Shown here: piece after piece, positions 37,241 to 39,128 of the stretch
Layout: every line of letters starts with the position of its first letter
How positions within the stretch are numbered: the stretch's first letter is position 1
Source of the DNA: Bacteroidota bacterium
GTDB lineage: Bacteria > Bacteroidota > Ignavibacteria > Kryptoniales > JAKASW01
Direction: 5' to 3'
Assembly: GCA_023381615.1 (NCBI GenBank)
Contig: JAMCQL010000035.1
Location: 5,979 to 69,978, forward strand
Length of the DNA stretch: 64,000 nucleotides
Program-made: the position numbers and the translations under genes
The notes under the pieces: model-generated
Told to the model about the DNA's origin: nothing
The model's input: only the letters and a program-made list of their open reading frames with translations
Databases searched by the model: none

Positions 37241-37965
37241 CCACTCAAGAGCTCTGGGCGAAATATTCAAAGCGGAAGTCCGCTGCGATCAAGAAGGAAC
37301 TCGTGCTTGCGTATCTGAACCTTGTGAAATTTGCGGCAAGGGCGATAAACCTTCCATCGCGAAGCGTTTTCACGAGCGACGATTTGATGAGCATAGGAAT
37401 TATCGGACTTAATGAAGCAATCGAAAGATTCGATCCGTACCGCGGGGTAAAATTCGAGACGTTCGCTTCTCAGAGAATTCGCGGAGTGATGCTTGACGAG
37501 ATAAGAAAAGTCGACTGGCTGCCGAGATCTGTGCGCGATAAATATAAAAAAGCTTCGAAGTCTCTGAGCGAGCTTGACATGGATAAAGTCAACGGCGAAA
37601 AGTACGCGCGGGCGATCAACATGACTGTCAGCGAATTCGAGCAGATAAAGGGTTATCTCGCGAACGCCGAGGCGGTCTCATTGACAAAAAGCATCGGCGA
37701 CGACATGACGCTCGAAGACGTCATAAGCAGCGACAGCGAGGTGATCGAGCAGTACGAAGATATAGAACTCAAAGAGCAGCTCGTTGAAACTTTGAAGCAG
37801 CTTCCCGAAAGGGAGAGAATGGTGATCACGCTTTATTACTATGAAGAAATCACTTTCAAAGAGATCGGGAAATCGCTCGGCATCAGCGAGTCGAGGGTTT
37901 CGCAAATACATTCAGAGGTTATTATAAAACTGAAGCAGCTTTTCAGGAAGGCAGTTGAACAATGA
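37237..37965 (+). CDS. fliA: Flagellar sigma factor FliA (sigma-28)
   Basis: Regions 2, 3 and 4 are present. Region 4.2 reads [37 protein letters not shown]. Confidence 0.9.
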   Translation: [242 protein letters not shown]

Positions 37966-39128
37966 TAGAGGTTGGACAATTGACAGACAGGTTGTCATCA
38001 ATACGAGAACTGCCGACTTTTCCGACGACTGCCCTTGAGGTAATGCGCCTCGCGAGCGATTCGGGCAGTAGTGCGGCGGAATTGTCGCGGATAATTTCAA
38101 AAGATCCTTCACTGGCGGCAAGAATACTGCGCGTCGCCAACTCGCCCTTCTACGGATTCGCGAGAAAAGTTTCCACCATAGAATGGGCAGTAGTGGCGCT
38201 CGGTTTTGAGACACTTCGCGAGACAGTCTTGTCGCTCACTCTGATAGACTTTTTCAAAGGCTCCGCGCTGAAACATTTTGATCCAAAGAAATTCTGGAAA
38301 CATGCGATAGACACCGCAACGGCAGGGCGTTCTCTTGCTAAAGAAATGAAATACAGGCTGCCCGGCGAGGCGTACGCCGTCGGACTTCTACACGATGTCG
38401 GAACACTCGTGCTTTACAGATATTTCCGCGATGATTTCGAAGAGATACAGAGGTTGATCTTCGAAGAAAATCTTCAACCGCTTCAGGCAGAAGCCGTCGC
38501 TATAGGAACAACTCATGCTGATGTCGGCGCATGGATCACGGACAAGTGGAGTTTCCCGTCATATTTTGTCGAGGCGATCAGATTTCACCACACACCGGGT
38601 TATGCAGAGACCAATCCTGAACTTACGGCGATTGTTCATGTCGCGAACCAGATCGCATCGGTGAATGGATATTCCTGCTCTGATCAGCCGATAAAGTTCG
38701 ATTTTGCCGCCGTCCAGATAATCGGGATTGAGAAGCTCGGGATTTCAGTCAAAGCTCTCGCCGACAAGTATTTGGATGATGACTCCTCCGCAACGGTTAG
38801 AGTGAAAGTTCCCATCATGGATTATGCGCTGCAGGGGAACAACACGGAGTTCGAAGGAGCAGTACAGGGAGCGGTAGCGAACGAAGTCGATGACGAAACT
38901 CTCAGGAGATTTTTCAAAGACGCGATCAAGCTTCTGCCGTCAACAGAAAGACTTGTCGTCACTTTGAAGCTTTATGAAGGACTTGAGTTAAGGCAGGTCG
39001 CGACCGTTCTCGGTTACGAGGAAGCGAGAGTTGCCGAGCATTACCGAAACGCCGTTTCCGTTTTACAGCAGATGGCGGAGCGTGCAATCTTAACAAATAG
39101 GTTGGGTCAGTGGAAAACGAGATTCTAA
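37962..39128 (+). CDS. HDOD domain protein fused to a C-terminal sigma-70 region 4-like HTH
   Basis: The N-terminal ~270 aa are HDOD (LPTFPTTALEVMRL...ILRVANSPFYGF...GLLHDVG...HH). The C-terminus LPSTERLVVTLKLYEGLELRQVATVLGYEEARVAEHYRNAVSVLQQ aligns position-by-position with FliA region 4.2. Confidence 0.75.
   Translation: MIEVGQLTDRLSSIRELPTFPTTALEVMRLASDSGSSAAELSRIISKDPSLAARILRVANSPFYGFARKVSTIEWAVVALGFETLRETVLSLTLIDFFKGSALKHFDPKKFWKHAIDTATAGRSLAKEMKYRLPGEAYAVGLLHDVGTLVLYRYFRDDFEEIQRLIFEENLQPLQAEAVAIGTTHADVGAWITDKWSFPSYFVEAIRFHHTPGYAETNPELTAIVHVANQIASVNGYSCSDQPIKFDFAAVQIIGIEKLGISVKALADKYLDDDSSATVRVKVPIMDYALQGNNTEFEGAVQGAVANEVDDETLRRFFKDAIKLLPSTERLVVTLKLYEGLELRQVATVLGYEEARVAEHYRNAVSVLQQMAERAILTNRLGQWKTRF

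Follow-up and report, generated by a model that had tools for sequence, protein, structure and literature searches.

The textbook circuit that controls flagellar sigma-28 (FliA) depends on export of the anti-sigma factor FlgM once the hook is complete. To our knowledge, sigma mimicry is known from the PhyR system only. In the alphaproteobacterial general stress response, a sigma-like domain of PhyR is reported to bind NepR, an anti-sigma factor. Many bacterial signalling proteins contain an HDOD domain. This domain has been linked to motility phenotypes, and its molecular function is not established. We know of no described HDOD protein that has a sigma-factor domain or that is reported to be genetically coupled to fliA. 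The protein described here, named HDOD-sigma4, is encoded directly after fliA in a DNA stretch of 64,000 nucleotides (the window; assembly GCA_023381615.1, contig JAMCQL010000035.1, positions 5,979 to 69,978). The source organism is an uncultured Kryptoniota bacterium known from metagenome assemblies only. HDOD-sigma4 belongs to the HDOD family and shares homology with region 4 of sigma-28, but it is not itself a sigma factor. We tentatively propose that its region 4 may act as a mimic that captures FlgM.

Domain structure and conservation of HDOD-sigma4

The homologue set comprised 41 full-length proteins of 383–398 amino acids with 63–100% identity. The few homologues with a source name are labelled Kryptoniota, with one labelled Acidoferrales. 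Where these proteins have a database name, it is "HDOD domain-containing protein", "putative nucleotidyltransferase with HDIG domain" or, for some, "RNA polymerase sigma factor".

Domain and fold searches confirmed that HDOD-sigma4 consists of an HDOD domain, a disordered and poorly conserved linker, and a four-helix region 4 of the sigma-28 type. The Pfam HDOD profile (PF08668) matched residues 17–212 over its full length (1–196), with an E-value of 2.6e-61 and 207 bits against a cut-off of 22.9. The AlphaFold2 model was built on the 41 homologues and had a mean predicted local distance difference test score (pLDDT) of 77.7. It showed a helical HDOD fold over residues 1–272, confident for most of its length (pLDDT mostly 75–97), and a pLDDT below 50 for linker residues 274–309. 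The fold search with the whole model was dominated by HDOD. The top 12 matches of Foldseek in the Protein Data Bank (PDB) were all HDOD structures (E = 2e-10 to 1e-5), including 3hc1, SadB (9qzk), 3m1t, MmoQ and cj0248, and region 4 appeared only in low-ranked local matches. H114, H144-D145, H185, H210 and H226 were invariant in the 41 homologues, and H209 was present in at least 90% of them. This His/Asp set makes up the conserved positions of the HD-type site, a putative metal site. Pfam showed no Response_reg match, no GerE/LuxR match at E ≤ 1 and no Sigma70_r2 or r3 match in HDOD-sigma4, the rest of which is HDOD and linker. HDOD-sigma4 cannot be a sigma factor because regions 2 and 3 are absent.

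The four helices of region 4 span residues 311–322, 327–338, 343–350 and 354–377 in the AlphaFold2 model. Foldseek aligned 3hug_K, an extracytoplasmic function (ECF) sigma region 4 bound to RslA, to the C-terminus with a template modelling (TM) score of 0.80 and a root-mean-square deviation of 1.7 Å over 66 columns. BLASTP aligned the C-terminus with the window's own FliA over 72 residues without gaps, at 29% identity (E = 9e-11), and the best NCBIfam model of the C-terminus was FliA_WhiG (E = 2.6e-8, residues 303–371). When a profile of 23 homologue C-termini was compared with PDB sequences, the first seven matches were all WhiG or FliA: 6pfj/6pfv (9e-11, the best), 7lq4, 6pmi, 9wsf/9wsm and 1rp3, with the ECF sigmas far behind. 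The hhalign comparison with 16 FliA proteins of the class to which the Genome Taxonomy Database (GTDB) assigns the window gave a probability of 98.1% (E = 7e-14) over 73 columns. Its span on FliA, residues 164–236, covers the end of the 3/4 linker and then regions 4.1 and 4.2.

The Pfam Sigma70_r4 models were sub-threshold on residues 320–369, with 20.9 against 24.1 bits for PF04545 and 20.1 against 25.7 bits for PF08281. Sigma70_r4 passed with 25.8–45.4 bits in proteins that occupy the same slot after fliA in related genomes. A more diverse sister family (the type of genome G033) has the same architecture and slot and comprises about 41 clusters of 317–374 amino acids in metagenomes; most of its members carry precomputed PF04545 and PF08281 matches. 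The initial annotation of this DNA had described the first ~270 residues as a typical HDOD domain and regions 2 and 3 as absent, and the searches above agree with both statements. It had also aligned the C-terminus with region 4.2 of FliA and proposed domain searches as a check. The homology to FliA region 4 holds, and the match extends over 4.1 and 4.2 rather than 4.2 alone. Sigma70_r4 stayed under its gathering score, whereas FliA_WhiG, the profile search and hhalign support region 4.

The mean pairwise identity among the 41 homologues was 72.8% in the HDOD domain, 29.5% in the linker, whose length varies, 80.9% in region 4 and 76.5% in the 11-residue tail. The extension of the last helix, QQMAERAIL (369–377), reached 90.8%. 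Judged by these identities, the region-4 mimic is under stronger constraint than the HDOD sensor. Region 4 is likely to be functional and not a remnant, because it is the best conserved part of the protein. The tail behind it has no counterpart in FliA, whose C-termini are variable, and its residues T378, N379, R380, W384 and K385 were kept in 40–41 of the 41 homologues.

The surfaces of region 4 were compared with those of Pseudomonas aeruginosa sigma-28, for which a crystal structure with FlgM is available (Table 1). The exchange L204R in that protein raised the dissociation constant for FlgM from 2.2 to 422 nM, about 200-fold weaker binding, and Q228A strongly reduced transcription and motility (PMC12784957). 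The numbering was checked on the alignment with 9wsf_A, in which the P. aeruginosa number equals the HDOD-sigma4 residue minus 131.

Table 1. Positions of P. aeruginosa sigma-28 that contact FlgM or read the -35 element (PMC12784957), and their counterparts in HDOD-sigma4.
P. aeruginosa sigma-28	Role	HDOD-sigma4	HDOD-sigma4 homologues	FliA for comparison
L187	FlgM contact	F318	39/41
I191	FlgM contact	I322	40/41
L200	FlgM contact	L331	40/41
A203	FlgM contact	T334	40/41	T in the window's own FliA
L204	FlgM contact	L335	41/41
Y206	FlgM contact	L337	41/41
E209	FlgM contact	G340	41/41
L210	FlgM contact	L341	41/41
S224	reads -35 element	A355		S in 23/25 class FliA
R225	also a -35-reading position	R/K356		R in 25/25 class FliA
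Q228	reads -35 element	E359	37/41	Q in 25/25 class FliA
H230		Y361		H in 25/25 class FliA

The five hydrophobic FlgM-contact positions of HDOD-sigma4 were kept in 39–41 of the 41 homologues. In the sister family, positions 187, 191, 200, 204 and 210 were hydrophobic in 40–41 of 41 proteins, and A203 and Y206 were kept. The DNA-reading positions showed another pattern. The sister family had R at position 225 in 0/41 proteins and Q at 228 in 8/41, and the recognition helix of two relatives (L015, L035) is without any basic residue. Within the HDOD-sigma4 family the recognition helix was conserved in its own way, with E354, V357, Y361 and A364 invariant, R/K356 in 37/41 and K/R362 in 35/41. As far as these residues tell, region 4 of HDOD-sigma4 has kept the partner-binding groove and lost the -35-reading face. 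Competition for -35 elements, one of three roles suggested in the initial annotation, is disfavoured because the DNA-reading residues are replaced in both families. As the main role it was rejected, with Q228 changed to E and S224 to A against a near-invariant class FliA.

FlgM, sigma-28 promoters and the proposed role of the mimic

The whole genome was searched in six frames with the Pfam FlgM model. The search gave no FlgM match on the window's contig. A candidate flgM of 87 amino acids was found on another contig, C75 (G000:C75:29775-30035, minus strand; locus L001 1441-1704). Upstream of it lie fliD and an open reading frame (ORF) of 116 amino acids that has no name. Its match to Pfam FlgM is weak (E = 0.001, 19.7 bits, under the cut-off of 25). 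The candidate has 26 homologues, of which one has a precomputed PF04316 match and two are named "anti-sigma28 factor" by the Joint Genome Institute (JGI), and the best PDB match of its profile was Aquifex aeolicus FlgM (1rp3_B, E = 0.0012). V72, V76, A77 and V83 are invariant in its C-terminal part. P. aeruginosa FlgM has the patch V96/A97/L100/L101 (PMC12784957), and V76-A77 look like the counterpart of V96-A97 when judged by eye, without an alignment.

A strict scan of the genome for sigma-28 promoters (TAAA-N14-16-CCGATA) gave 22 matches. Two of the 22 fit the longer sigma-28 consensus, and both are on C75. One, TAAAGTTT-N12-CCGATA, lies 156 nucleotides upstream of flgM, and the other, TAAAGTTC-N12-CCGATA, lies 107 nucleotides upstream of the flagellin gene. 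The same scan of the window, with one mismatch allowed, gave no convincing sigma-28 promoter and none near 37–39 kb. The organism thus appears to have a classical FliA/FlgM circuit, with FliA, FlgM and sigma-28 promoters all present. The absence of flgM reported in the initial annotation is thus true of the locus and of the window's contig but not of the genome. That the organism lacks FlgM was rejected, with the 87-residue FlgM of C75 standing behind a textbook sigma-28 promoter.

We hold as a tentative preference that HDOD-sigma4 is a sigma-28 region-4 mimic under HDOD control, which would act by protein binding and have FlgM as its target. Among the three roles suggested initially, that of an anti-sigma decoy fits best, given that the groove hydrophobics are kept and FlgM exists. 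The junction of fliA and the HDOD-sigma4 gene, GAACAATGATAGAGG, confirmed the overlap read earlier, in which the start codon ATG at 37962 and the stop codon of fliA have ATGA in common. Because of this overlap, translation of the mimic is likely to be coupled to that of FliA. The mimic would then compete with FliA region 4 for a region-4-binding partner, most likely the FlgM encoded elsewhere in the genome. Capture of FlgM would shift the FliA/FlgM balance and alter late flagellar gene expression by a route separate from FlgM export. A flexible linker of about 35 residues connects the mimic to the HDOD domain, which may expose, hide or localise it on a signal. If this is true, it would be a second, independent use of sigma mimicry after PhyR, an intracellular signal would be fed into late flagellar gene expression, and the HDOD domain would gain a concrete, testable partner.

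Several observations weigh against FlgM as the target. Two polar FlgM contacts are changed in HDOD-sigma4 (Y206 to L and E209 to G). The hydrophobic positions that are kept also serve the fold core and flap binding, so their conservation is not FlgM-specific. The conserved recognition helix and the unique tail hint at a surface, or a partner, foreign to FliA. In P. aeruginosa, FlgM also grips sigma2 and sigma3 (PMC12784957), so that a mimic with region 4 only would be weaker than FliA and would need excess or avidity. Of 30 flagellated class genomes, 29 contained FlgM-like ORFs at E ≤ 1 and about 22 at E ≤ 0.01. Because these FlgM homologues occur both with and without a sigma4 gene, co-occurrence of the two does not discriminate.

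The fliA neighbourhood, origin of the fusions and alternative roles

The genes of the window are in the order flhA, flhF, flhG, an 82-residue ORF, fliA, HDOD-sigma4, a plain HDOD gene, a GAF kinase gene, a gene for a 236-residue protein, flgF and flgG (Table 2). All junctions of this block are overlapping or a few bases apart, and this spacing suggests that HDOD-sigma4 may be co-transcribed with the fliA block. The fliA product matched TIGR02479 (FliA_WhiG) with 213 bits against a cut-off of 189.6, and Pfam regions r2 and r4 were matched.

Table 2. Features of the fliA region, in window coordinates.
Feature	Position	Strand	Description
82-residue hydrophobic protein	36992..37240	+	between flhG and fliA, overlaps both
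fliA (sigma-28)	37237..37965	+	242 amino acids; stop TGA within the ATGA overlap
HDOD-sigma4 gene	37962..39128	+	ORF of 388 amino acids; start ATG inside the fliA stop overlap
HDOD domain	37962..38777	+	residues 1–272; Pfam, AlphaFold2, Foldseek
Variable linker	38778..38891	+	residues 273–310; predicted disordered; length varies
Sigma-28-type region 4 (4.1 + 4.2), proposed mimic	38892..39092	+	residues 311–377; homology and model
Family-specific tail TNRLDQWK(M/T)(R/K)(Y/F)	39093..39125	+	residues 378–388; no FliA counterpart
Plain HDOD paralogue	39110..39970	+	286 amino acids; 19-nucleotide overlap with HDOD-sigma4; Pfam HDOD E = 2.2e-65
GAF-HisKA-HATPase histidine kinase	39992..41398	+	Pfam; part of the conserved block
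236-residue protein	41395..42105	+	hydrophobic stretch ~49–72 (by eye); last insert gene before flgF

The slot between flhG and fliA holds genes of 84–92 amino acids in two distant relatives (L065, L067), and a Pfam search with the 82-residue protein of the window gave no match. The GAF kinase has the same position in the loci of relatives L015–L017, L065 and L067. The tail of the 236-residue protein has a weak DUF2802-like match, below threshold (Pfam E = 0.011). In relatives of both families, the gene after the kinase encodes 243–295 amino acids, a likeness in size only. At 51286–53085 of the window, directly after motA and motB, fliW is followed by a gene for a REC-Hpt protein and then one for a single-domain REC protein. 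These two proteins are possible phosphorelay partners of the orphan GAF kinase.

A strong FliA match was found in 37 of 121 sampled genomes of the window's class, and 34 loci were read, including that of the window. A plain HDOD gene (~282–335 amino acids) is tightly coupled after fliA, either directly or after the sigma4 gene, in 32 of these 34 flagellated genomes. Outside the class, 13 FliA loci of the phylum were examined, and none has an HDOD gene within ~4 kb. The plain HDOD protein is the class-wide conserved member of the HDOD pair and may itself be a sigma-28 partner. One of the two genomes without a post-fliA HDOD gene, G089, has an ORF of 369 amino acids instead (L027, G089:C2 800-1909), with no meaningful Pfam match.

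An extra region-4 gene between fliA and the plain HDOD gene was found in 12 genomes, including that of the window. The window's family is represented by its own genome, G113, G229, G185, G237, G222 and G163, with genes of 388–389 amino acids. The extra gene of G033 encodes 357 amino acids. G053 has two extra genes in tandem (362 and 348 amino acids; L016, G053:C77, 2814-3902 and 3893-4939), whose recognition helices differ strongly (SRADVDVLH and TEPEARQVH). In G061 the gene encodes 230 amino acids with only the first half of the HDOD domain (L017, G061:C26, 2971-3663), and in G009 it encodes 134 amino acids of region 4 only. G208 has a form of 121 amino acids (L032, G208:C1, 857-1222; identical to P0254) with an in-frame HDOD deletion, which keeps the first ~40 residues and region 4. 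This form is possibly decaying, because the otherwise invariant G340 and K385 are changed. A search of 1.84 billion cluster representatives gave three full-length fusions among the best 150 matches (P0037, P0152, P0221). Independent contigs of both families showed the order flhB, flhA, flhF, flhG, small ORF, fliA, HDOD-sigma4, HDOD, GAF kinase, unnamed protein, flgF, flgG, flgA and flgH, and the block junctions in the relatives examined from both families were overlapping or short.

The order fliA, HDOD-sigma4, HDOD suggests that HDOD-sigma4 probably arose from a duplicated fliA-HDOD unit. A tandem duplication of the unit would have been followed by a deletion that fused the first HDOD copy with the 3′-terminal part of the second fliA. 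In a region-4 tree of only 60 columns, all genuine FliA proteins, including P. aeruginosa and out-of-class sequences, formed one clade (99/98). The mimics were outside this clade on long branches, and the window's family nested weakly within the sister family. Only the copy of G061 grouped within the FliA clade, as sister to its own FliA (91/88), with which it shares 51% identity; its fusion is probably a separate, recent capture. At least three changes of state are required by the HDOD tree, in which long branches meet. Together, the data suggest one old and one recent origin of the fusions.

The recurrence of these fusions bears on a different role, in which the plain HDOD protein would bind FliA region 4 as an anti-sigma factor, co-factor or proteolysis adaptor, and the fused region 4 would be an intramolecular pseudo-substrate or a decoy that titrates the plain HDOD protein. 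We consider this role unlikely, but of some weight. It would account for the coupling of fliA and HDOD in 32/34 flagellated class genomes against 0/13 loci of other classes, for the joining of HDOD to a FliA-type region 4 in two families and probably again independently in G061, and for the two tandem fusions of G053. HDOD proteins affect motility in several bacteria, and the HDOD protein SadB is reported to be an adaptor that binds a transcription regulator. No contact between an HDOD domain and a sigma factor is known, however. Neighbouring genes are in any case likely to fuse by duplication and deletion, so that repeated fusion is weak support for such a contact. The AlphaFold2 arrangement of the two domains is not confident (predicted TM score 0.65, disordered linker), and the long branches of the HDOD tree count here too. 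In its broad form, the post-fliA HDOD proteins of the whole class would be unrecognised post-translational sigma-28 regulators that grip FliA region 4. The fusions would reveal this contact, and FliA, HDOD and mimic would form a three-part switch beside or instead of FlgM export, with the region-4 copies, fused or free, as pseudo-substrates. We regard the broad form as somewhat more doubtful still. If true, it would give the widespread HDOD domain its first molecular function, and sigma mimicry would have been invented a second time, PhyR being the first.

Sigma factors contact the beta-flap tip of RNA polymerase with region 4, by the groove in which anti-sigma factors also sit. The flap and FlgM surfaces of region 4 overlap, so the conserved groove residues would also suit a region-4 copy that binds the flap tip and either brings the HDOD domain to the enzyme or competes with sigma factors. 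The tether was among the initially suggested roles. We find this role improbable: occupation of the flap would hit every sigma factor, which is hard to square with the strict linkage to fliA, isolated region 4 binds the flap weakly, and no flap-specific sequence feature was seen.

The conservation of the recognition helix within the HDOD-sigma4 family would suit a one-component transcription factor, with HDOD as the sensor and the region-4 helix-turn-helix reading a new DNA site other than the sigma-28 -35 element. Region 4 and the LuxR/GerE helix-turn-helix domains share a common fold. This role is, in our judgement, just as improbable as the polymerase tether. The recognition helix is wholly different between families of the same slot, some members having no basic residue in it, and glutamates occupy two DNA-facing positions (354 and 359). 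A GerE/LuxR match was lacking, as stated above, and helix-turn-helix DNA-binding proteins of this kind usually need dimerisation, of which neither the sequence nor the model gave a sign. That the gene is an evolutionary leftover, a fusion by-product of local duplication with no function of its own, is very improbable. The close relative G208 has the altered HDOD-less form and many flagellated relatives lack the gene, but 41 intact, full-length homologues exist at identities as low as 63%, conservation is highest in region 4, beside a freely varying linker, and a second family of ~41 clusters has the same architecture.

Comparison with known systems

Full-text literature searches, which included sigma mimicry terms, yielded no description of an HDOD-sigma fusion or of an HDOD gene coupled to fliA, in agreement with the initial view that the architecture is undescribed. 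The N-terminal 272 residues of HDOD-sigma4 form a typical HDOD domain, His/Asp set included, as in the stand-alone and adaptor HDOD proteins 3hc1, 3m1t, Cj0248, GsmR and SadB. Several HDOD proteins affect motility, and SadB is reported to act by binding a transcription regulator.

The best solved-structure matches of the mimic are the WhiG chains of the Streptomyces RsiG complexes (6pfj, 6pfv, 7lq4). RsiG is a cyclic di-GMP-armed anti-sigma factor for a sigma-28 homologue, and this system demonstrates that a second-messenger input to sigma-28-type regulation is possible. Unlike HDOD-sigma4, RsiG is an anti-sigma factor and not a sigma mimic. No RsiG-like protein was noticed here, and no search was aimed at RsiG.

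The FliA/FlgM complexes (1rp3, 1sc5 and that of P. aeruginosa, PMC12784957) are the reference for the C-terminus of HDOD-sigma4, which is homologous to FliA 4.1-4.2 and keeps the FlgM-contact hydrophobics. The organism also has a classical FliA, FlgM and TAAAGTT...CCGATA promoters. Unlike FliA, HDOD-sigma4 has no regions 2 and 3, carries other residues in place of Q228 and S224, and ends in an extra conserved tail.

PhyR (PhyR/NepR/sigma-EcfG) and HDOD-sigma4 both combine a signalling domain with a sigma-like part that is not a working sigma factor. The binding of PhyR to NepR is experimentally established, and that of HDOD-sigma4 to FlgM is a proposal. The input of PhyR is a phosphorylated receiver domain, and that of HDOD-sigma4 is the HDOD domain, without a receiver. 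The PhyR mimic is of the ECF type with sigma2 and sigma4, and that of HDOD-sigma4 is of the sigma-28 type with region 4 only. The domain order of PhyR is also the reverse of that of HDOD-sigma4, in which the sensor is N-terminal and the mimic C-terminal. HDOD-sigma4 is not a member of the PhyR family because it lacks the receiver domain and the sigma2 part. It would be PhyR-like in logic at most: in the role proposed here, as in PhyR, a mimic would capture the anti-sigma factor and the real sigma factor would be freed.

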